In this document: positions 7,095 through 62,484 of the stretch, piece by piece
Layout of the letters: every line of letters begins with the position of its first letter
How positions within the stretch are numbered: the stretch's first letter is position 1
Assembly: GCA_965221125.1 (NCBI GenBank)
Contig: CBDCRW010000002.1
Span: 128,001 to 192,000, forward strand
Length of the DNA: 64,000 nt
Source of the DNA: Alphaproteobacteria bacterium
GTDB taxonomy: Bacteria > Pseudomonadota > Alphaproteobacteria > UBA828
Direction: 5' to 3'
Notes under the pieces: generated by a model
The model's database searches: none
Seen by the model: the letters and a program-made list of their open reading frames with translations, nothing else
What the model was told of the DNA's origin: nothing
Program-made: the position numbers and the translations under genes

Positions 7095-7175
7095 CGCCAC
7101 CCGGCCGGGACCGGCGCGCAAGAGAAACGACAGGTGGGGCATTCGTTGGGATCGCCCAGAGCCAGCCAGGACATC

Positions 7176-7514
7176 ATGAACGTGACGACGGAACGCGAGG
7201 CCGGCGTGCTGTCGGTGCGGGTCGAGGGGCGCATCGACGGCTCCACCGTGCTCGCGTTCCACGAGGCGATCGAGACTGCGCTCGAGGACGGCGATCACAC
7301 CGTGGTCGTCGACTGCGAGAGGCTGACCTACATCGGCAGCGCGGGCCTTCGCACCGTGCTGGCGCTCACCAAGGCCGTCTCCAACCGTGACGCCCGGTTC
7401 GCGCTCTACGCGGTTTCGGCTCACGTCAGGAGCATTTTCGAGAAGAGCGGATTCGACACCATCATCACGATCCGCCCGTCGCGGGCCGAGGCGATCGCCG
7501 CCCTCGCGGAGTGA
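7176..7514 (+). CDS. STAS-domain anti-sigma factor antagonist (RsbV/SpoIIAA-like)
   Basis: VEGRID...VVVDCERLTYIGSAGLR, containing the phospho-acceptor Ser motif; about 112 aa. Confidence 0.88.
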   Translation: MNVTTEREAGVLSVRVEGRIDGSTVLAFHEAIETALEDGDHTVVVDCERLTYIGSAGLRTVLALTKAVSNRDARFALYAVSAHVRSIFEKSGFDTIITIRPSRAEAIAALAE

Positions 7515-7844: not shown

Positions 7845-7877
7845 TAAAGCCTTTCCGTGTGAAACGGGACCGCTCTA
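7845..7877. repeat. 33-bp palindromic repeat unit (REP/RIME-like family)
   Basis: TAAAGCCTTTCCGT-GTGAA-ACGGGACCGCTCTA, similar to 21220-21252 and 52367-52399; the terminal CTA is the LysR gene stop. Confidence 0.7.
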
Positions 7878-8819
7878 CAGGCGGATCGCCTTCTGCGCCT
7901 CCTCGGTGAGCGCGGCTCCAGCGCCGGCCGCGGCCTCCGCCAGCACGTCGATCCACCGCTGGCCGTGGGCGGCAACCCGGTGGGTGAGGCCGATCCGCCG
8001 CGAGGGCTCGGGCGCGGCGAAACGCAGGAAGCTCAGGTCGGGCTCGGCTGCGCGCTCGGCGAGCGCGGCGGTTTCCGGGAGGAGCGTCAGCCCGGCGCCG
8101 CTCGCGACCAGCCGGGACAGCGTGGCAAGCGATTCCGCGCCGCGGCGCACCTCCCGCGTGCGCCACATCAGGGAGGCGCCGAGGACCTGGTCGGCCAGGC
8201 AATGCCCGTCGCCGAGCGTGAGCAGCGGCCCGATGTCCGCCCGCGCCAGGTCGGAGGGACGCACGTCGTCGCCGAGCGTGCGCCGGATCGAGGCCAGGCG
8301 GTCGGCCCGGCCGGCGAGCACGAAGTGATCCTCGAAGAGCTCGCGCTCGGGCAGCTCCATCAGCCCCAGCGGGAGAGAGACGATCGCCGCGTCGAGGCGC
8401 CCGGCAAGGAGGCCGGCCACGACGTCCTGCCCCGGCGCCTCCCTGATATCGAGCTCGATACGGGGCGAGGCCTCGTGCAGGCGGCTCAGGATGCCGGAAA
8501 GCAGATAGGGCGCGAGCGTGGAGACGATGCCGACGGAGACGTGGAGCGGGCCCGACTCGAACCTCTGGCCCAGGTTCTCGAGGAGCAGCGTCTCGTCCAG
8601 GATGCGAAGGGTCTGCTCATGCGCCTCGCGGCCGAGCGGCGTGAGCAGGATGCCGCGGGGCTCGCGCTCGACCAGCGGCCCGCCGAGCGAGCCCTCCAGC
8701 TCGCGAATCTGGAGCGAGAGCGCGGGCTGCGAGACGTGGACGCTCTCGGCGGCCCGGCTGAACGAGCCGTGCTCGATCAGGGCCTGGAAGTAGCGGAGCT
8801 GACGCAGGGTGACGGGCAT
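7875..8819 (-). CDS. LysR-family regulator, OxyR-like (one-Cys)
   Basis: N-terminal HTH TLRQLRYF...SFSRAAESVHVSQPALS; GHCLADQ and ESLATLSRLVASGAGLTLLP resemble OxyR. Confidence 0.85.
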   Translation of the reverse strand: MPVTLRQLRYFQALIEHGSFSRAAESVHVSQPALSLQIRELEGSLGGPLVEREPRGILLTPLGREAHEQTLRILDETLLLENLGQRFESGPLHVSVGIVSTLAPYLLSGILSRLHEASPRIELDIREAPGQDVVAGLLAGRLDAAIVSLPLGLMELPERELFEDHFVLAGRADRLASIRRTLGDDVRPSDLARADIGPLLTLGDGHCLADQVLGASLMWRTREVRRGAESLATLSRLVASGAGLTLLPETAALAERAAEPDLSFLRFAAPEPSRRIGLTHRVAAHGQRWIDVLAEAAAGAGAALTEEAQKAIRL

Positions 8820-9113: not shown

Positions 9114-11102
9114 TCAGGCAGGGGCGGTATCGCCCGGCTCGCCATCGTAGCGCAGCACGATGCACGTGATGTCGTCGGACTGCTCCGCGCCGGCGACGAA
9201 TTCGACCACCGCGCTGGTCACGTTCGTGAGCACGGCGTCGACGGGCAGCGCGTGGCCATCGGCAAGAACCGCCTCCAGACGGGCCTCGGTGAACTCCTCC
9301 TCGTCGGCGTTCATGGCCTCGGTGATGCCGTCGGTGTAGAGGAACATCGTGTCCCCCGGCGCCAGCGTCGTCTTGTCTTCGCTGTAGGGCAGTCCGGGCA
9401 TGACGCCGACGGCCATGCCGCCCGTCATCGGCAGCGCCAGGACGTCGCCGGGGCGCTTGACGACGAACGGCGGGTTGTGCCCGGCATTGGCGTAGACGAA
9501 CTCGCCTGTCTTGGGGTCCAGGATTCCGTAGAAGAGCGTGACGAACAGGTCTTGCGGGTTCTGCTCGCAGATCGCGTCGTTGACCTCCTCCAGGCAGGGG
9601 CCAGGATCGGGATGCCGGGCCGCAGCCGCGCGCATGACGGTGCGCGCGATCGCCATGAAGAAGGCCGCCGGCACGCCCTTGCCGGAGACGTCCGCCATGA
9701 CCACGCTGAGCCGGCCGTCGTCGAGCATGAAGAAGTCGTAGAAGTCGCCGCCCATCTCGCGTGCCGGAGTCATGAGCGCGTGCCCTGAGAAGGACGGGCT
9801 GTCCGGCAGCGTCTTGGGCAGGATCGCGCCCTGCAGGGCGTGCGCGATCTTGAGCTCCGACTCCATGCGCTCCTTCGCCCGTTCGAGCTGCGCGTTGGAT
9901 TCCTCCAGGTCCCGCGTGCGCGCGCGCACCATGCTCTCCAGGTATTCCTCGCGCGCCTGCACCTGGCGCACCATGTTCTGGAACACGCGGACCAGGGTGC
10001 CGAGCTCGTCCCGCCGGCCGGCGACGGGATCGAGGGTCTCCGGCGCGAAGCTGAGCGTGTCGGTGTCTACCTCCGCCGCCGCCGTGGTCAGCGCCGTGAC
10101 CGGCTGCACGATGCGGCGCGCCGAGATGGCGGCGATGATCGAGCCGATGGCGAAGGCCGCCGCCGCGACGATGAGGCCGTACTTCACGTGGTCCGCGAAC
10201 AGCCGGTCCAGGTGGTCGCGCCCCATGTGGAGCACCGCGGCCCCGGTGGCGACGCCGCCGCGGTCGAGAATCGGCGCCGCCACGTGAAGGGCGCGCTCGC
10301 CCAGGTAGGACATGGAACCGTCGATGCCGAGCGCGCGCGTGGCGAGATCCTCGTCTTCGGCCGAGAGGGACGCGTCCGTTATGGGGTCGTCCGGGCCCGC
10401 GAACGCAGCCATGCCGATCAGGTCGAGCAGGTCGTTGACGACCCAGATCGCCTGGATCGCCTCGCGCCCGGCCAGCGACTCCAGCGCCGCCTCGATGCCG
10501 ATGATCTCGCCGGGGCCGCCGGTCTCGGCCGCCAGCGTGCCGACCAGGACGGATTCGCGACTGCTGGCGCGAACGCCTACGTACCGCATGGGCTTTTCCC
10601 ACCCGCTTGGCGGGATCGACTGGAACGTGATCGAGAAGCGCCGGCCGGAGACCAGCGCCTCCACGACACGGGAATCGATGCCGGCGGACGCGAGATCCGA
10701 GGGCCTGTCCTCGCTCAGCCCGCCGACCGCCCGCAGCTCCGGCTTGCCGTCCTCGTCCAGCAGCCAGATGTCGTCGACGGCGCTATCTGCCGTCAGCTTC
10801 GCGAAATAGGCGCCGAGGGCTTCTTCGCTGAGCTCCTCCTCGTGGTCGCGGCTTTCGAGATGGCGGGCGATCGCCAGCGCCTGCGCCTCCATCTGGCGGA
10901 CGATCATGCGGTCTATCTCGTCGGCGGTGAGCTCCGCCCGGTTGGCTTCGCTCGCGATCAACCCGGCGACGAGCCGGGCCTGGTCCTCGGCCTGCTCGAT
11001 CAGCGCGTCGCGCGCAAGAAAACCCATCGCCAGCGAAACGCCGACGATGGCCACGCCGACCGACGCGGCAACCGTGATGATCAGGCGTCTCGAGAGGGTC
11101 AA
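9114..11102 (-). CDS. Membrane sensor PP2C/SpoIIE (RsbU/SiaA-like) protein phosphatase with HAMP domain
   Basis: Two TM segments around a periplasmic region; HAMP (RRDELGTLVRVFQNM); coiled coil; GGDFYD, ADVSGKG, NAGHNPP, YTDGITEA and DDIT motifs. Confidence 0.92.
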   Translation of the reverse strand: MTLSRRLIITVAASVGVAIVGVSLAMGFLARDALIEQAEDQARLVAGLIASEANRAELTADEIDRMIVRQMEAQALAIARHLESRDHEEELSEEALGAYFAKLTADSAVDDIWLLDEDGKPELRAVGGLSEDRPSDLASAGIDSRVVEALVSGRRFSITFQSIPPSGWEKPMRYVGVRASSRESVLVGTLAAETGGPGEIIGIEAALESLAGREAIQAIWVVNDLLDLIGMAAFAGPDDPITDASLSAEDEDLATRALGIDGSMSYLGERALHVAAPILDRGGVATGAAVLHMGRDHLDRLFADHVKYGLIVAAAAFAIGSIIAAISARRIVQPVTALTTAAAEVDTDTLSFAPETLDPVAGRRDELGTLVRVFQNMVRQVQAREEYLESMVRARTRDLEESNAQLERAKERMESELKIAHALQGAILPKTLPDSPSFSGHALMTPAREMGGDFYDFFMLDDGRLSVVMADVSGKGVPAAFFMAIARTVMRAAAARHPDPGPCLEEVNDAICEQNPQDLFVTLFYGILDPKTGEFVYANAGHNPPFVVKRPGDVLALPMTGGMAVGVMPGLPYSEDKTTLAPGDTMFLYTDGITEAMNADEEEFTEARLEAVLADGHALPVDAVLTNVTSAVVEFVAGAEQSDDITCIVLRYDGEPGDTAPA

Positions 11103-11157
11103 CGGCGGTGTCCGGCAGTGGTGTACGCCCGATGCGAGCCTCGGGCGCGGGGCGCTG

Positions 11158-11835
11158 TCACGGCAGCGGAGCCCCGGTTATATCGGTCGTCTCTTCCAGC
11201 GGCCGATGCACGCGCCGCCTGATGTGTCTGCTCAGCCAGTTCATTCCGAGCGTCAGCAGGATGCTGAAGCCGAGGAACCAGATCATAGCCCAGAGATAGA
11301 CCCAAAGCGCCAGCCCGATCTCGTCGACGGCGCCGATGACCGTATCCGCGCGCCGCACGAGCTCCGGCACGCCGATCACCGAGGCGGTGCTGGAGGCCAT
11401 GACGATGATCAGGAAGTAGCTGGTCCAGGCCGGCACGAAGAGCAGCGCCTCCGGCATCTCCTGGCGGCGCATGTGGCGGATCGCGGCGAGCGCGTTGTCC
11501 GACACGTAGCCGGCGACCGCGATGCCGAGCGCGAGCGATGCCTTGATCCAGGCCGGGAAGGTCGCGGAGGCGCCGAAGAGCGTGAACTCGGTGGGGATGA
11601 TGTAGGCCAGGTAGAACAGCATCACGAAGGTCGGCGCGTTGCGGGCCAGCGTCGTGAGCCCGCTGCCGCCGTGCCTCACGCCCCAGTTGGCGCCGCCCCG
11701 CAGCAGCGCGAGCACGACGCCCACGACCGTCCCGATCGCCATGGCGAGCAGGGAGACGATGATGTTCCAGCCGAAGCCCTCCGCCAGGAAGGGCGACCAG
11801 ACCCAAAGGACGTCGATCGTCTCCCCCGCCGTCAT
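11158..11835 (-). CDS. Polar amino acid ABC-type permease (HisM-like), EAA loop apparently missing
   Basis: RNAPTFV and SSTASVIGVPELV motifs; several TM helices; ATGA overlap with the upstream gene. Confidence 0.8.
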   Translation of the reverse strand: MTAGETIDVLWVWSPFLAEGFGWNIIVSLLAMAIGTVVGVVLALLRGGANWGVRHGGSGLTTLARNAPTFVMLFYLAYIIPTEFTLFGASATFPAWIKASLALGIAVAGYVSDNALAAIRHMRRQEMPEALLFVPAWTSYFLIIVMASSTASVIGVPELVRRADTVIGAVDEIGLALWVYLWAMIWFLGFSILLTLGMNWLSRHIRRRVHRPLEETTDITGAPLP

Positions 11836-13433
11836 CGTGTCGTGGCCCTGCCCCGCTCGAACCGGCGGAAGAGCTGCACGGTGATGATGACCAGAACGAA
11901 GTAGCAGATGAGGAGAAGGTTCATCATGACGTCGGCATTGCCCTTCTCCGCCACGATCGACGTGCTGGCGTGCACCAGCTCGGGCAGGGCGAGCGTGCTG
12001 GCCATGCCGGTGGCCTTCACGATATTAGCGGAGTTGCCCATGATCGCGGCGTAGCAGAGCCTGAACGCCCGATTGATGTCGCGCGGCACGAATTTCAGCT
12101 TGTGGCTGCCGGTGGCGGCGACATCGGCCGCCAGCGAGAACGCGATCGCATTGCTCGAGGCGGCATAGAGCGACAGCACCACGGCGGCGACCAGGAAGGC
12201 GTCGAGCGTGAACCCGAGCGACAGCAGCACGCCGCCGAGGCCGAAGAACACGATGTAGAGCTGGAGCAACGGGGGAGTCATGCGCAGGAACTCGCTGAAC
12301 GCCCGCAGGAAGTGGCTGACCCCCGGCACGCGGCGGTGCATCAGCCAGCCGAAGATCACCCCCAGCAGGATGCTGCCGAAGACCGTGATGGCCGAGAGCG
12401 CCGCGGTGAGCGCGAGGCCGTAGAGGAAAACGCTGCGGTCGAGCGGGTCGTAGAGGATGCTGATGTCGAGGCCCGTCACCTCCATGATCGTCAGCGAGAA
12501 GCCCGAAAGGCCGCCGATGCCGCTGCCGGTGACGAGGGCCACCACCCGGCATTCGAGCGGCCACTGGCCCTGCTCGTTTCGCCGGCACTTCGGCTCCCCG
12601 GCTTCGTCGGTCTCCTGCCAGGTCGTCCGCGCGTCACGCAGGAAGGGCGAGGGCGGCAGCTCCCACTTCTTCTCCAGCGATTGCAGGAAGCCGTCGCGAT
12701 GCCACCCCGCCAGCGTGTCGCCCATGAGCCGGTCGAGCGCGCCGCCGCCTTCCTCCTTGGCGATGGCGACGGCCCAGGGCAGCACGAAGCGCGTCGGCAG
12801 CGAGACGCTGAAGCCATCCCACTCGCCGGATTCCAGTTCGTGGAGGAGGAGGACCTCGTCGTAGATCCAGCCGACGCAGTGCTCGTTGCGCAGCCCCTGG
12901 CTGGCCTCGCGGGTGCTGTTGAAGGCGGTCACGTCGAGCAGCAGCCGCTGCTTGGCGAGCCGGTTCCAGAGCGAGCCCTGAAGCCCGCAGACGGTCTGCC
13001 CGCGCAGGTCGGCCCAGGTGCCGATCCTGGCGCTGTCCCGCAGCAGCACGTTGGCCCCGTCGCCGTAGTATTGCGGCTCGATCATGGTGACCAGCTCGCG
13101 GCGGCTGCGGGTGTCGCCCATGGTGGCGGCGACGATGTCGATCTCGCCCTGCTGCACCTTCTGCAGCCGGTTGGCGCTGGTGACCGGCTCCAGCCGGAGC
13201 TCGACGCCGATCGCCTCCGCGAAGCCGCGCGCCACGTCCACGTCGTAGCCGACCAGCGTGCCCTCGGCGTCGCGAAAGCCGAAGGGCGCGTAGTCCTCCT
13301 TCACGCCGACGGTGACGTAGCCGCGCTCCTGGATCTCCTGCAGCCGGTCGGCAAGCGCAGGCGAGGCCAGGCCCGCCCAGGCGACGAGGGCGATGGCGCC
13401 GAGCAGGCGCCAGGGCGGGAATCGCAAGCTCAT
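11832..13433 (-). CDS. Fusion of amino acid substrate-binding domain and ABC-type permease
   Basis: Signal peptide; GVKEDYAPFGF, GYDVDVA and TSANR of SBP family 3; C-terminal TM domain with RMTPPLLQL. Confidence 0.85.
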   Translation of the reverse strand: MSLRFPPWRLLGAIALVAWAGLASPALADRLQEIQERGYVTVGVKEDYAPFGFRDAEGTLVGYDVDVARGFAEAIGVELRLEPVTSANRLQKVQQGEIDIVAATMGDTRSRRELVTMIEPQYYGDGANVLLRDSARIGTWADLRGQTVCGLQGSLWNRLAKQRLLLDVTAFNSTREASQGLRNEHCVGWIYDEVLLLHELESGEWDGFSVSLPTRFVLPWAVAIAKEEGGGALDRLMGDTLAGWHRDGFLQSLEKKWELPPSPFLRDARTTWQETDEAGEPKCRRNEQGQWPLECRVVALVTGSGIGGLSGFSLTIMEVTGLDISILYDPLDRSVFLYGLALTAALSAITVFGSILLGVIFGWLMHRRVPGVSHFLRAFSEFLRMTPPLLQLYIVFFGLGGVLLSLGFTLDAFLVAAVVLSLYAASSNAIAFSLAADVAATGSHKLKFVPRDINRAFRLCYAAIMGNSANIVKATGMASTLALPELVHASTSIVAEKGNADVMMNLLLICYFVLVIITVQLFRRFERGRATTR

Positions 13434-13886
13434 GCGGCCGACCGCGCCTCGGGCGCGGAGACAACGGGTTCGACGGCATGGCCGCTGCCCGCGGCAGTCG
13501 AGCGACGGGATGGTGGAACGGGAGCGCGCCTGCGCATCAATCCGCCCCGGCCGTGGCGGCACGAGCCCCGGAGGCCAGGCAAGATGCCACGGCCGCATTG
13601 CGTCGGAGGTCGATGATCGTCGCGTGAATCATCGTTGCCACTCTTCTTGACGCGAACCGGAAACAGGGTTCTGCGCAACGGAACGCTCGCCCTCCCGGCC
13701 ATCGCCGCGGTGCCGTCGGCCGCGGCAACGAAGAATCCTATCCGATATGGACATAGGACGAAATAGAGTATCGTGCCGCACGGGTGGAACCAGTTTCTGC
13801 CGTCATTCCATGCGTCGCCGTGCCGCAGGGGGTCGGCGCGCGCGCATCGCGGCCCGCGGGAAGGACGGCAGACCGTCGGGGGAAGA

Positions 13887-14831
13887 ATGACCGGCTTCAG
13901 TCATCGTCTGCACCTCGCTCTGCCGCGACGTCGGGCGCTGCCGCGCTACGGGGGCGCCCTGCTTGCGCTCGTCATGCTGGCGTCGGGCGCGCCGCACCCG
14001 GCGCCGCCGGCACACGCCGCCGCCGACGGCGTGCTCGCCAGGATCGAGGCGGACGGCGTGATTCGCGCCGGCACCCGGGCGAGCGCGCCGCCCTTCGCCC
14101 GGAAGCTCGAAACCGGCGGCTTCGAAGGCTTTTCGGTCGACCTGCTGGAGCTGGTCCGGGCCGCGACGCAAGAGAAGGTGGGCCGGCCGGTCGCGCTGGA
14201 GCTGCAAGAGGTGACGCCGGGCGACCGGCTGCAGCGGGTCGCCGCGGGCGAGCTCGACATCGTCTGCGGCATCACCACGCCGACCTGGGATCGCGAGGCC
14301 CTGGTCGACTTCTCCGTGCCCTTCTTCCGCGACGGCACGCGCATCCTGACCTATCGCGAGCATGCCACGGGCGGAGTCGATCTCGGCCGGCTCGACATCG
14401 GGGTGGTCGAAGGCACGACGACCGTGAACATCGTCAACGAAGAGCTGCCGACGGCGAACCTGCATCGGTTCCCCACCATGAAGGACGCGATGAGCGCGCT
14501 TGCGGCTGGCGAGGTGAAGGGCGTCGCCAACATCGGCATCACGCTGCTGGGGCTTGCGGCGAAGGCGGAGCCGCGCCGGAGCGTGGTCCTGCTGCCGCGC
14601 ACCTACGCGCTCGCCATGGAAACCCTGGCCTGCGTGCTGCCGCAGGACGACAGCCCGTGGCGCGATACCGTCAACCGGGTCATCATCGACATGTTCAGCG
14701 GCGTCGAGGACTCCAACAGCCGCTACGACGAGGTCTACGACCGCTGGTTCGGGCGCGACAGCGAAATCTTCTATCCGCTCGACCGTGACAATCGCACCTA
14801 CCTGAGCACGGTATCGATCTGGGCGCGCTGA
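13887..14831 (+). CDS. Amino acid ABC-type substrate-binding protein (GltI-like, family 3)
   Basis: GTRASAPPF, GFSVDL, DIVCGITTPTWDREALVDFS and YDRWFG; N-terminal signal peptide. Confidence 0.85.
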   Translation: MTGFSHRLHLALPRRRALPRYGGALLALVMLASGAPHPAPPAHAAADGVLARIEADGVIRAGTRASAPPFARKLETGGFEGFSVDLLELVRAATQEKVGRPVALELQEVTPGDRLQRVAAGELDIVCGITTPTWDREALVDFSVPFFRDGTRILTYREHATGGVDLGRLDIGVVEGTTTVNIVNEELPTANLHRFPTMKDAMSALAAGEVKGVANIGITLLGLAAKAEPRRSVVLLPRTYALAMETLACVLPQDDSPWRDTVNRVIIDMFSGVEDSNSRYDEVYDRWFGRDSEIFYPLDRDNRTYLSTVSIWAR

Positions 14832-14949: not shown

Positions 14950-15456
14950 ATGGACGCTCCATCCGCAGACCGGCCCGCCTTCCACGACGGCGGGCACGAG
15001 CACCGGGGCTGCATCGCGGACGCGCTGGCCCGCGCCGAGGCCGTCTGCCGCGAGCGCGGCGCCCGCCTGACCCCCTTGCGGCGCAGGGTGCTGGAGCTGG
15101 TCTGGGAAAGCCATCGGGCGGTCAAGGCCTACGATCTGCTCGCCGCGCTCGGCGACGAGGGCGGCGCGGCCAAGCCGCCGACGGTCTACCGCACCCTCGA
15201 GTTCCTGATGGAGCATGGCCTGGTCCATCGCATCGACAGCCTCAACGCCTTCGTCGGGTGCCCGCAGCCGGACGAGGGCCACAGCGCCCAGTTCCTGATC
15301 TGCGGCGATTGCGGCGAGGTCTCGGAGATGAACGCGGCCAGCATCGACCGCGCGGTCGCCGCTCAGGCGGCCGGCTCGGGCTTTGCGCTCACGCGCACGA
15401 TCGTCGAGCTGCACGGCAAGTGTCCGCAGTGCGCGCCGCGCCCGCAGAGCGGCTGA
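14950..15456 (+). CDS. zur: Zinc uptake regulator (Fur family)
   Basis: RLTPLRRRVLEL, KPPTVYRTLEFL and two CxxC motifs; precedes znuCB. Confidence 0.9.
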   Translation: MDAPSADRPAFHDGGHEHRGCIADALARAEAVCRERGARLTPLRRRVLELVWESHRAVKAYDLLAALGDEGGAAKPPTVYRTLEFLMEHGLVHRIDSLNAFVGCPQPDEGHSAQFLICGDCGEVSEMNAASIDRAVAAQAAGSGFALTRTIVELHGKCPQCAPRPQSG

Positions 15457-16295
15457 GCCGGCAGCCCGCCGCGCCCGGGCCGCTGCTTGCCTCGGGCCGC
15501 GACCTGGTGGTGCGCTACGGCGGCCGCGCGGTGCTGGACCGGGTCTCGATCGAGGTCCGCCGCCAGGAGGTGGTAAGCCTGATCGGGCCGAACGGCGCGG
15601 GCAAGACCACCGCGGTGCGCGCGCTGCTCGGCCTCATCAGGCCCGATTCCGGCGCCGTCCACCACGAGCCCGGCATCGCGGTGGGCTACGTTCCCCAGCG
15701 CTTCGAGCAGCAGGAGCTTCTGCCGCTCAGCGTGCGCCGCTTCGTGGCGATGGCGAGGCGGCGCGCCAGCGGCGATGCTGCCGCTGTGCTTCAGGAGGTG
15801 GGGGCGGCGGCGGCCATCGACCGCCAGCTCAGCAGCCTCTCCGGCGGCGAGTTCAGGCGGGTGCTGCTCGCCCGCGCCCTGTTGCGCGACCCCGACCTGC
15901 TGGTGCTCGACGAGCCGATCCAGCAGGTCGACTTCGCCGGCCAGATGGCCATGCACCAGCTGATCGGCCACCTGCGGGACCGCCGCGGCTGCGGCGTGCT
16001 GGTCATCTCCCACGACCTTCACCTCGTCCTCGGCGCGACCGACCGCGTGATCTGCATCAACGGGCACGTCTGCTGCGCGGGCGAGCCGGAGGCGGTGAGC
16101 CGGCATCCCGAGTACGTCGCGCTGTTCGGCCCCCATGCGGCTGCGGCGGTGGCGGTCTACACCCACCACCACGACCACAGTCATGGCCTTCCCGTCTCCG
16201 TGGCCGCGATGGAGCCCGGCCTGCCGGACGGCGGACCACCGTCCGGCGACGGACCTGCGTCCGGTGACGGACCTGCGTCCGGCGAGGCCGGCTGA
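15453..16295 (+). CDS. znuC: Zinc ABC transporter ATP-binding protein (start uncertain, possibly CTG)
   Basis: GPNGAGKTT, LSGGE, LDEP, SHDLHLV, HVCC and a YTHHHDHSH tail. Confidence 0.9.
   Translation: MSRQPAAPGPLLASGRDLVVRYGGRAVLDRVSIEVRRQEVVSLIGPNGAGKTTAVRALLGLIRPDSGAVHHEPGIAVGYVPQRFEQQELLPLSVRRFVAMARRRASGDAAAVLQEVGAAAAIDRQLSSLSGGEFRRVLLARALLRDPDLLVLDEPIQQVDFAGQMAMHQLIGHLRDRRGCGVLVISHDLHLVLGATDRVICINGHVCCAGEPEAVSRHPEYVALFGPHAAAAVAVYTHHHDHSHGLPVSVAAMEPGLPDGGPPSGDGPASGDGPASGEAG
16243..16286 (+). repeat. 18-bp tandem duplication encoding (SGDGPA)x2 in the ZnuC tail
   Basis: CCGGYGACGGACCTGCGT twice plus a partial third copy. Confidence 0.8.
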
Positions 16296-16302
16296 GCGCG
16301 CA

Positions 16303-17136
16303 GTGCTCGACGACTTCTTCGCGCGCGCGCTCGCCGGCGGCATCGGCGTGGCGATCGCCACCGGGCCGCTCGGCTGCTTCATGGTCTGGCGGCGCATGGC
16401 CTACTTCGGCGATTCGGTCGCCCACAGCGCGCTGCTCGGCGTCGTGCTGGGCGTCGGCCTCGGCATCGAACCCAACGCCGGCATCCTCATCATGTGCGTG
16501 GCCCTCGCCCTGCTGCTCCTGCTCCTCCAGCAGCAGCGCCGCCTCGCCACCGATACGCTGCTCGGCATCATGGCGCACGGCGCGCTCGCTCTCGGCCTCG
16601 TCGGGATCAGCTTTCTCGAGACCGTGCGGGTGGACCTGATGAGCTACCTGTTCGGCGACATCCTGGCCGTGAGCGGCCGCGACCTGCTCTGGATCTACGG
16701 CGGCGGCGGCGCGGTCCTGCTGGCGACGGCGCTGATCTGGCGGCCGCTGCTGGCCGTCACCGTGCACGAGGAGCTGGCGCGTGCCGAGGGCGTGCGCGTG
16801 CACCTCGTGCGCATCGCCTTCACCCTGCTGATCGCGCTCGCGGTCGCCATCGCCATGAAGATCATCGGGCTGATCCTGATCGTGTCGCTGCTGATCATCC
16901 CGGCGGCGACGGCGCGCCGGCTCGCACGCTCGCCCGAGCAGATGGCCCTGCTCGCGAGCGCGACCGGGGCGGTGGCCGTGGCCGGCGGGCTCCACGGCTC
17001 GCTTGCGTGGGACACGCCGTCCGGTCCCTCCATCGTGGTCGCGGCGCTCGCGCTCTTCGCGCTGGCGCACGGCGGCGCCGCGCTGGCCTCGGCCTTCGCC
17101 GGCCGGATCGTTGATTCGGCACGCGCCAACCACTAG
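16303..17136 (+). CDS. znuB: Zinc ABC transporter permease
   Basis: GPLGCFMVWRRMAYFGDSVAHSALLG, YLFGDIL and DTPSGPSIV. Confidence 0.92.
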   Translation: MLDDFFARALAGGIGVAIATGPLGCFMVWRRMAYFGDSVAHSALLGVVLGVGLGIEPNAGILIMCVALALLLLLLQQQRRLATDTLLGIMAHGALALGLVGISFLETVRVDLMSYLFGDILAVSGRDLLWIYGGGGAVLLATALIWRPLLAVTVHEELARAEGVRVHLVRIAFTLLIALAVAIAMKIIGLILIVSLLIIPAATARRLARSPEQMALLASATGAVAVAGGLHGSLAWDTPSGPSIVVAALALFALAHGGAALASAFAGRIVDSARANH

Positions 17137-61698: not shown

Positions 61699-62484
61699 AT
61701 GACCGCGCCGGCGACCGTGGGCCCCGGCGGCAGCCCTGCTGCGCCCGTCGTCCATGCCGGCAATCCGGGCCTGCGGGCGGAGAACCTCGGCAAGAGCTTC
61801 AGGAAGCGGCCGGTCCTGCGCGGCCTCAGCCTGAGCGTGCAGCGCGGCGAGGCGGTCGGCCTGCTCGGCCCCAACGGCGCCGGCAAGACGACCTGCTTCT
61901 ACCTGATGACCGGCCTGATGGCGGCGGACTACGGCCGTGTCTTCCTCGACGGGCACGACATCACCGGGCTCCCCATGTATCGCCGTGCCCGCCTCGGCCT
62001 CGGCTACCTGCCGCAGGAGGCCTCGATCTTTCGCGGGCTCACGGTGGAGAACAACATCCGCGCGGTGCTGGAAGTGACGATCGAGGCGCGCGACGAGCGC
62101 GAGCATGTGCTGGACGAGCTGCTCGCCGAGTTCTCGATCACCCATCTGCGGCGCACGCCGTCGCTCGCGCTCTCGGGCGGCGAGAGGCGGCGGGTGGAGA
62201 TCGCCCGCGCGCTCGCGTCCAAGCCCCGCTTCATGCTGCTGGACGAGCCGCTGTCGGGGATCGACCCCATCGCGGTGGCGGAAATTCGCGACCTCGTCGC
62301 CCACCTCAAGGACCGCGGCATCGGCGTGATGCTGACGGATCACAACGTGCGGGAGGCGCTCGACATCGTCGACCGCGCCTTCATCATCAACGAGGGCGCC
62401 GTGCTGATGGAGGGCCCGCCCTCGGAGATCGTCTCCCACGACGAGGTGCGGCGCGTCTACCTCGGCGACCGCTTCCGGCTGTAG
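61699..62484 (+). CDS. lptB: LPS export ABC ATP-binding protein
   Basis: GYLPQEASIFR, TDHNVRE and YLGDRF. Confidence 0.96.
   Translation: MTAPATVGPGGSPAAPVVHAGNPGLRAENLGKSFRKRPVLRGLSLSVQRGEAVGLLGPNGAGKTTCFYLMTGLMAADYGRVFLDGHDITGLPMYRRARLGLGYLPQEASIFRGLTVENNIRAVLEVTIEARDEREHVLDELLAEFSITHLRRTPSLALSGGERRRVEIARALASKPRFMLLDEPLSGIDPIAVAEIRDLVAHLKDRGIGVMLTDHNVREALDIVDRAFIINEGAVLMEGPPSEIVSHDEVRRVYLGDRFRL

Follow-up and report, generated by a model that had tools for sequence, protein, structure and literature searches.

An ABC importer module without an ATPase partner, encoded beside a HAMP-PP2C phosphatase, as a probable transporter-derived sensor

The locus considered here lies in a window of 64,000 nucleotides (the whole stretch of DNA analysed) from the Alphaproteobacteria bacterium assembly GCA_965221125.1 (contig CBDCRW010000002.1, positions 128,001 to 192,000; all coordinates below are positions in the window). 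It holds membrane and binding components of the polar-amino-acid ATP-binding cassette (ABC) importer type, together with a signalling phosphatase. According to the list of open reading frames (ORFs) and their Pfam matches, three tightly packed ORFs form a module on the minus strand, and a second substrate-binding protein (SBP) is encoded divergently on the plus strand. The first ORF of the module (11832–13598, 588 amino acids) is a fusion of an SBP to a permease. Its periplasmic SBP_bac_3 domain (12663–13316; residues 95–312, E = 1.9e-25) has amino-acid binding proteins as its best solved relatives (AncQR, 4zv1, E = 1.6e-19). Its membrane domain (11835–12554) is defined by alignment A4, and the domain's own profile also matches the orthologous loci. 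The second ORF encodes a permease of 225 amino acids (permease 2, 11158–11835) with the fold of a type I ABC importer membrane domain; its start codon and the stop codon of the fusion share the bases ATGA (11832–11835, read in the sequence). After a spacing of 55 bp (11103–11157, also read in the sequence) comes a membrane phosphatase of 662 amino acids (9114–11102), with a first transmembrane helix (TM1), a periplasmic domain, TM2, a HAMP domain, a coiled coil, and a PP2C catalytic domain of the SpoIIE family. The divergent, free SBP (13773–14831, plus strand; SBP_bac_3) is GrrP-like, with a score of 131.3 bits against the GrrP model TIGR04262, below the cut-off of 190. A preliminary description, made from the sequence without database searches, had listed these genes in the same arrangement, with the same overlap and spacing, and had suggested that they form a sensor rather than an importer.

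Two of the gene starts are ambiguous. The ORF of the fusion runs for 55 codons upstream of an internal ATG at 13433 (13433–13598), which directly precedes a signal-peptide-like hydrophobic stretch, so the annotated start is uncertain; translation may begin at the internal ATG rather than at the start of the ORF. In the divergent SBP, there is an in-frame ATG 37 codons downstream of the first GTG.

Permease 2 belongs to the polar-amino-acid permease fold, as judged by structure and by profile comparison, yet the standard models barely recognise it or the membrane domain of the fusion. Neither permease 2 nor the membrane half of the fusion matches PF00528 in Pfam at E ≤ 0.01, and their NCBIfam matches to polar-amino-acid permease models are weak. 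For the N-terminal three-helix domain (TIGR01726, cut-off 42.2 bits), permease 2 scores 44.3 bits and the fusion 38.3 bits. The AlphaFold2 model of permease 2 is confident (pLDDT 93.8), and its best Foldseek matches are 4yms_D and 4yms_C, the membrane subunit of Art(QN)2 (E ~2e-6, TM-scores 0.69 and 0.72). A search of 1.84 billion cluster representatives gave 339 matches at E ≤ 1e-3, and permease 2 was aligned with 39 homologues. When the permease-2 family was compared by hhalign with five canonical permeases of its own genome, the alignment had a probability of 99.4% and a single gap, of 20 columns, which opens immediately past the position of the EAA motif.

We measured the loop between two fixed positions of the profile, one on either side of the TM3-TM4 segment, which carries the EAA-x3-G motif and docks the ATPase. 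All canonical, ATPase-linked permeases of the 40 genome regions that were fetched have 63 residues here. In permease 2 (11380–11508, minus strand) and its orthologues the segment is 43 residues long, so that the preliminary estimate of roughly 20 missing residues proves to be exact, and the region of the coupling helix is deleted. The same description had both EAA loops deleted; this holds for permease 2, but in the membrane domain of the fusion (11997–12155, minus strand) the segment is merely shortened by 10 residues, to 53 (46–53 in the orthologues). Its remark that the fusion has no EAA motif is right: EAA-x3-G is lost from the 53-residue segment, whereas full-loop forms of the fusion from two other genomes (G315 and G178) have 63 residues and the motif DSAAALG. 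In a single-sequence phmmer alignment to 4yms_D the gap was spread out, and permease 2 seemed to lack no more than about 6 residues; that figure is superseded by the profile alignment and the HMM-based lengths.

The deletion is typical of a family. Among 173 stored homologues, 115 span the loop region (the remaining 58 are fragments), and their loop lengths are bimodal: 95 have 34–47 residues (exactly 43 in 80 of these), 20 have 63–64, and none lies between. In the AlphaFold2 model of permease 2, the TM3 helix (residues 95–123) is followed by a lone helix of 4 residues (127–130) and then by TM4 (133–154), with no helix pair between TM3 and TM4. The linker is also the least conserved segment of the short-loop family (entropy 2.90 bits, versus 2.37 overall), whereas the EAA loop of the canonical relatives is conserved above average (1.48 versus 1.84 bits). 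The cores of TM3 and TM4 are conserved in the short-loop family (1.88 and 1.80 bits), as are the rest of the membrane core and the periplasmic face.

No ATPase accompanies the module. The window has two ABC_tran matches, at 15534–15920 and at 61816–62253. The first is ZnuBC-like, since it adjoins an ABC-3 permease, and the second is 50 kb from the module, which bears out the claim that the locus has no polar amino acid ATPase gene. In the genome as a whole we found exactly three strong GlnQ-type ATPases (323, 309 and 280 bits; the next scores 203). All three adjoin a canonical polar-amino-acid permease set, which leaves none spare. Together with the shortening of both loops, this supports the earlier argument that loss of the docking site speaks against an ATPase borrowed from elsewhere.

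We then compared 90 short-loop loci. Eleven of them, the window included, are one locus from a metagenome-assembled genome (MAG) and loci from sampled reference genomes, in which a short-loop member was present in 9 of the 401 genomes of a class sample and 4 of the 401 of a phylum sample; the other 79, all short-loop, came from a scan of metagenomes. That scan used motifs of the window's own subfamily (alignment A5), so the counts lean towards this subfamily. None of the 90 loci has an ABC ATPase within 1.5 kb. Ten have one at 1.8–3.0 kb, and where the class of the ATPase was tested it was another one: ZnuC-like, RbsA-like, MalK-type or ABC-F. As candidate partners we rejected the ZnuC-like ATPase of the window (beside its ABC-3 permease), a TOBE-type ATPase with permeases of its own (locus L053), and ATPases of the LivG type (L055), the RbsA-like type (L125), the MalK type (L142) and the ABC-F type (L162); those of L099, L101, L104, L126, L144 and L147 were classed by matching layout rather than individually. 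The full-loop loci look different. Among 24 with a full-length match, 20 have an ATPase 54–532 bp away on the same strand, G315 and G178 have it in a neighbouring operon, the short contig of one locus holds none, and another contig is not long enough to decide. Eight further canonical loci are outside that table, as their profile match is split; all eight have 63-residue loops, and six adjoin an ATPase as scored with a profile built from 12 ATPases of the window's genome. The contig of L065 (3.9 kb) stops at the permease, and in L091 the nearest ATPase is ~8 kb off, beside another permease.

The short-loop permeases form one group. We built a quick maximum-likelihood tree (LG+G4) from 103 sequences, leaving out one with a very long branch (P0112), and rooted it on 12 canonical permeases. 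All 64 short-loop sequences fall on one side of a branch that separates them from the 39 full-loop sequences (SH-aLRT 99.9). The sister group of the short-loop clade includes the full-loop permeases of G163, G315 and G178. In G315, an SBP-permease fusion and a permease keep 63-residue loops and PF00528 matches, with an SBP alongside. The full-loop relatives in loci L056 (from G315) and L063 (from G178) match PF00528, unlike the short-loop permeases. The neighbouring operon in G315 encodes a STAS protein and a HAMP-SpoIIE phosphatase, whose periplasmic domain is of the type found in the phosphatase of the window, and further a methyltransferase, an ATPase of the GlnQ type (209 bits to the GlnQ model) and an RsbW-like kinase. 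This arrangement resembles a stage that preceded the loss of the motor. The window's own genome has no close copy of the G315 ATPase; its nearest match is only 41% identical and is the ATPase of a canonical system. We also noticed that in L056 (G315:C33:155500-175400) and L063, a gene for a TonB-dependent receptor lies directly upstream of the SBP genes and a DUF3108 gene lies downstream. In G178, a type I secretion cluster (a C39 peptidase ABC exporter, a second ABC exporter and OEP) splits the permease operon from the ATPase and RsbW-like genes.

The module is maintained by selection. Against five orthologues, dN/dS was 0.09–0.13 for permease 2, 0.10–0.18 for the membrane domain of the fusion, and 0.15–0.20 for the N-terminal 400 residues of the phosphatase, so these genes are under purifying selection. 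The nearest public relatives of the window are MAGs of Rhodospirillales or other Alphaproteobacteria. The fusion, permease 2 and the phosphatase occur together in 11 relative loci, with permease 2 at 85–96% identity. The flanking genes are syntenic as well, scored only where the fetched DNA reaches: the second SBP and a Zur-like gene in 10 of the 11 loci, and LysR, STAS and GlcF genes in 9 (two loci end short of the STAS gene). The wider family has at least 1173 clusters at 90% identity, at a profile E ≤ 1e-20. A precomputed Pfam domain was found for 0 of 120 members among the matches listed, and in the ESM Atlas the clusters are unnamed or only generically named. The source databases call the members "polar amino acid ABC transporter permease", "ABC transporter permease subunit" or "hypothetical protein".

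Genes for signalling proteins are the usual neighbours. There is one within 3 kb in 56 of the 90 short-loop loci, and in 33 of the 40 loci that have at least 2.5 kb of sequence on both sides. In those 33 loci we found SpoIIE (29 loci), HATPase_c_2 (5), STAS (5), MCP (2) and cyclase (2) domains. The commonest neighbour is a dCache-like HAMP-PP2C phosphatase; others are RsbW-like kinases, dCache-adenylate/guanylate cyclases, a CHASE8 hybrid histidine kinase, and chemoreceptors. In one subfamily, the neighbour is a dCache receptor with a cyclase output (dCache_1-Guanylate_cyc). A free SBP is kept beside or between the genes of the module in the relatives. In one metagenome locus (L156:10348-12603), the cluster that holds the module also encodes a SpoIIE phosphatase, two STAS proteins and an RsbW-like kinase, together with a SulP-family transporter whose domains include STAS and cNMP-binding ones.

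In some homologues the permease and the signalling domain are a single protein. Among the 24 homologues of more than 395 amino acids, 22 are proteins of 853–855 amino acids with an N-terminal permease followed by HAMP and SpoIIE domains. These fusions come from many distinct clusters and from contigs of up to 6.9 Mb. In one of them (P0002), the last helix of the permease leads through a short linker into sequence that matches the beginning of the phosphatase in the window. This fits the predicted topology, in which the C-terminus of the permease and the N-terminus of the phosphatase would both be cytoplasmic (for the five-helix permease we relied on the AlphaFold2 models and on the topology of HisQ and HisM). 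In three independent proteins (P0005, P0013 and L054), the permease is fused to an RsbW-like HATPase_c_2 domain, without any periplasmic sensor. Other longer homologues carry SBP_bac_3 or TAXI-type (NMT1_3) binding domains. The neighbourhoods thus show what the preliminary description had predicted of them, both in the consistent absence of an ATPase within 1.5 kb and in the frequent linkage to signalling proteins.

The phosphatase may have a sensor of its own. Its catalytic domain (9147–9722, residues 461–652) matches PF07228 from position 1 to position 191 of 192 (E = 1.7e-54), and its HAMP domain (9957–10121, residues 328–382) matches PF00672 (E = 3.4e-6). The periplasmic domain of ~275 residues (10188–11012), which the preliminary description had not mentioned, has no match in Pfam, including the dCache families. 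The AlphaFold2 model of residues 1–400 (pLDDT 78.7) begins with a long helix, followed by two alpha/beta modules and another long helix that continues into the HAMP domain. The top Foldseek matches of the periplasmic domain are the ligand-binding domains of Tlp3, TlpQ, DctB, KinD and Mlp24, with E values of ~1e-6 to 3e-5 and TM-scores of only 0.3–0.45. By its predicted fold this may be a dCache-like sensor domain. The best NCBIfam model for the phosphatase is that of SiaA (NF038263), but the score of 105.8 bits is far under the cut-off of 700, so it is not a SiaA equivalog. For PPM phosphatases with N-terminal sensor domains, HAMP included, switching via dimeric coiled-coil linkers has been proposed (PMC12143880).

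Other parts of a partner-switching system are present in the genome. The phosphatase of the window is the only SpoIIE-family match in it, whereas STAS has eight matches and no fewer than four RsbW-like kinases stand alone. One STAS gene lies near the module (7134–7514, plus strand). It encodes a single-domain protein of the anti-sigma-antagonist type (PF01740, E = 2.9e-19; TIGR00377, 75 bits, above cut-offs), and it is syntenic with the module in 9 of the 11 close relatives. A serine in the context GSAGL, a candidate phosphorylation site, is visible in its sequence. The protein is the likely substrate of the phosphatase. Between these two genes lies a LysR-type regulator (7875–8819, minus strand), identified by its domain match and conserved synteny. 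No RsbW-type kinase (HATPase_c_2) is encoded in the window, whereas in relatives it is adjacent or fused to the permease. The partner-switching genes of this genome are dispersed (G000 C3:44500-52500, C7:308000-316000, C4:5000-13000 and C3:20500-28500, our loci L094-L097): stand-alone kinases adjoin a family 2 glycosyltransferase, a PPK2 polyphosphate kinase and a LysR gene, and one STAS gene is beside an ammonium transporter. Two of the kinase matches (G000 C4:8731-9105 and C7:55311-55685) have identical scores, and the C4 copy is near a phage-type integrase. They may be a duplicated mobile segment, or may reflect redundancy in the assembly (4.58 Mb, 92% complete, 5.8% contamination).

We propose that the locus encodes a receptor that is derived from a polar-amino-acid ABC importer, and we consider this probable. 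Nutrient sensing is its most likely role, rather than import, because the part that docks the ATP motor is lost and because a signalling phosphatase adjoins. The two binding proteins, one free and one tethered to the first membrane domain, would capture a periplasmic, amino-acid-like ligand. They would then dock on a heterodimer of the two ABC-type membrane domains, which have neither the coupling loop nor an ATPase partner. The resulting conformational change would pass, within the membrane, to the adjacent dCache-HAMP-PP2C phosphatase, and no transport would be driven. The HAMP/coiled-coil linker would set the activity of the PP2C domain towards phosphorylated STAS proteins, which in turn would control the RsbW-like kinases encoded elsewhere in the genome. 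Comparative genomics supports the sensor reading of the preliminary description, and nothing that could be computed contradicted it: the alignments and models have no intact coupling helix, and the homologous loci lack a nearby ATPase and are mostly linked to signalling genes. We give about an even chance to a broader statement: that a single deletion of the coupling loop founded a large, misannotated clade of ATPase-free, SBP-fed receptors that feed five or more kinds of output (PP2C phosphatase, RsbW-like kinase, class III cyclase, histidine kinase, and chemoreceptor), and that G315-type loci are transitional.

Several points weigh against a receptor or limit the evidence for one. A complex prediction with the membrane domain of the fusion, permease 2, and residues 1–400 of the phosphatase as the partner scored 0.00 without controls, and we used it neither for nor against contact. 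Seven of the 40 well-flanked loci have no recognised signalling neighbour. The locus counts are neither unbiased nor independent, given the own-subfamily motifs and the near-duplicates, and the trees are quick searches under LG+G4. As the genome is 92% complete, an ATPase gene could be missing from the assembly. The phosphatase, with a putative dCache-like domain of its own, could sense a ligand without the permeases. And many related loci have a methyltransferase whose substrate could be imported, a point in favour of residual transport. This is a class I SAM-dependent enzyme of ~265–330 amino acids with an intact GxGxG motif, encoded ~90–300 bp upstream of the SBP-permease gene in 46 of the 90 short-loop loci (for instance L053:6969-7853, L093:7628-8428, L125:2046-2837, and many of L099-L177). 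In G315 it lies inside the PP2C operon (L056:12301-13128). It is missing at the window and in its closest relatives (L099, L100, L101 and L104), and a PDB profile search with it found generic methyltransferases only.

Because the phosphatase carries a putative dCache-like domain, the SBPs might signal directly to that domain, in the way that binding proteins act on some sensor kinases, with the permeases as a passive anchor that tethers and positions the fused SBP and transmits nothing. Consistent with this, the neighbour in another subfamily is likewise a dCache receptor, and the free SBP is conserved beside or between the genes. However, a passive anchor would not need two membrane domains that are under purifying selection (dN/dS ~0.1), nor their conserved TM3 and TM4 cores. 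It is also hard to reconcile with the permease::HATPase_c_2 fusions, which have no periplasmic sensor, or with the PP2C fusions such as P0002, in which a short cytoplasmic linker joins the last permease helix to the first helix of the phosphatase. We think that a passive anchor is unlikely, and treat it as the main variant of our proposal. Some ABC importers share ATPases, so we also considered that the module might still be an importer which borrows an ATPase through non-canonical docking, the phosphatase being a mere neighbour or a sensor of flux. The closest full-loop relatives do keep a GlnQ-type ATPase, although inside a signalling operon, and the methyltransferase could act on what is imported. 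But the docking loop is lost in both membrane domains, the linker that replaces it is short and variable (down to 34–36 residues in some members), and no locus of the 90 has an ATPase within 1.5 kb. Furthermore, the three GlnQ-type ATPases of the genome are accounted for by the three canonical sets, and the G315 ATPase has only a distant match there. A borrowed ATPase therefore seems quite improbable.

An importer of another kind would be an ATP-independent facilitator or channel, through which the solute delivered by the SBP passes passively, with the signalling protein responding to it inside the cell. The membrane core and the periplasmic face do stay conserved, and the methyltransferase could trap the imported solute. 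However, we are not aware of any type I ABC membrane domain that functions in the absence of the ATPase, although no search was aimed at this. In the linked signalling proteins the sensor is periplasmic or in the membrane rather than a cytoplasmic ligand-binding domain, and a facilitator leaves the direct fusions to signalling domains unexplained. We consider it very unlikely. Finally, the loss of both the ATPase and the recognition by PF00528 could suggest the functionless remnant of a decaying transporter, but this is already contradicted by the dN/dS values of 0.09–0.20, the confident AlphaFold2 fold, the size of the family, and the synteny in 11 close relatives, and we give it almost no credence.

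The receptor that we propose differs from the known systems it resembles. Art(QN)2 of Thermoanaerobacter (4yms), HisQMP2 and GlnPQ have the same membrane-domain fold and the same family 3 binding proteins, and PDB entries titled [quoted passage not shown] also join a binding domain to a permease. Unlike these polar amino acid importers, the module has no EAA/coupling loop, no PF00528 match and no cognate ATPase, and it is linked or fused to signalling proteins. In LuxP-LuxQ, TorT-TorS and BvgS, a periplasmic binding protein is the element that recognises the ligand, and it contacts the sensor directly or belongs to it; those systems use no ABC membrane domains. In BceAB-BceS and PstSCAB-PhoU-PhoR, the state of an ABC transporter is relayed to a signalling protein, but the ATPases are kept and signalling needs transport activity, whereas here the ATPase and its docking site are gone. 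The phosphatase shares its HAMP-coiled coil-PP2C architecture with RsbU/RsbP-type phosphatases and with SiaA of Pseudomonas, and as in partner-switching systems, the genome has single-domain STAS proteins and RsbW-like kinases. Here, however, the operon partner is an ABC-derived SBP/permease module, and the kinase genes are dispersed instead of lying in the operon. The transceptor CbrA, with an SLC5 domain and a histidine kinase, is described as a transporter and kinase in a single polypeptide (PMC13022988, PMC7096432). Like our module, it joins a transporter fold to a signalling output. CbrA has the fold of a secondary transporter, still transports, and has a histidine kinase as its output, whereas the module is a binding-protein-dependent pair of ABC membrane domains without a motor, with PP2C, RsbW-like kinase, cyclase, histidine kinase or chemoreceptor outputs.

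Receptors derived from secondary transporters, and ABC transporters that signal while transporting, are thus known already. In the full-text literature that we searched, whose coverage leaves out most subscription journals, we found no description of ATPase-less ABC permeases as sensors, nor of an ABC importer that lost its motor and came to serve as the scaffold of a receptor. The main text of a 2025 survey of bacterial PP2C architectures has no occurrence of "permease" or "ABC transporter" (PMC12088040). Since members are annotated as "polar amino acid ABC transporter permease" or "hypothetical", metabolic reconstructions credit organisms with uptake systems that are probably absent. The family may also offer a natural experiment, in which the docking of an SBP moves ABC membrane domains without nucleotide, and a modular input device for phosphatases, kinases, cyclases and chemoreceptors. 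In this genome, with its one SpoIIE-family phosphatase, eight STAS matches and several RsbW-like kinases, the module is the only identifiable input to a dispersed partner-switching network.

Some neighbouring genes are of separate interest. After the divergent SBP, the window has a Zur-like gene of the Fur family, a ZnuC-like ATPase and a ZnuB-like ABC-3 permease (14950–17136). These genes seem to be unrelated to the sensor module. The conserved synteny noted above concerns only the Zur-like gene, as ZnuC and ZnuB were not among the query genes. In an Acetobacteraceae MAG, an ORF of 556 amino acids (L014:4777-6447) begins 36 bp downstream of a short-loop permease; it has no Pfam or NCBIfam match, and it is likely to be coding because the G+C content at its third codon positions is very high (0.95). 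It has no similarity to a chemoreceptor of L113, also of 556 amino acids. In G048, the phosphatase gene is followed by genes for an ammonium transporter and a GPP34-family protein.

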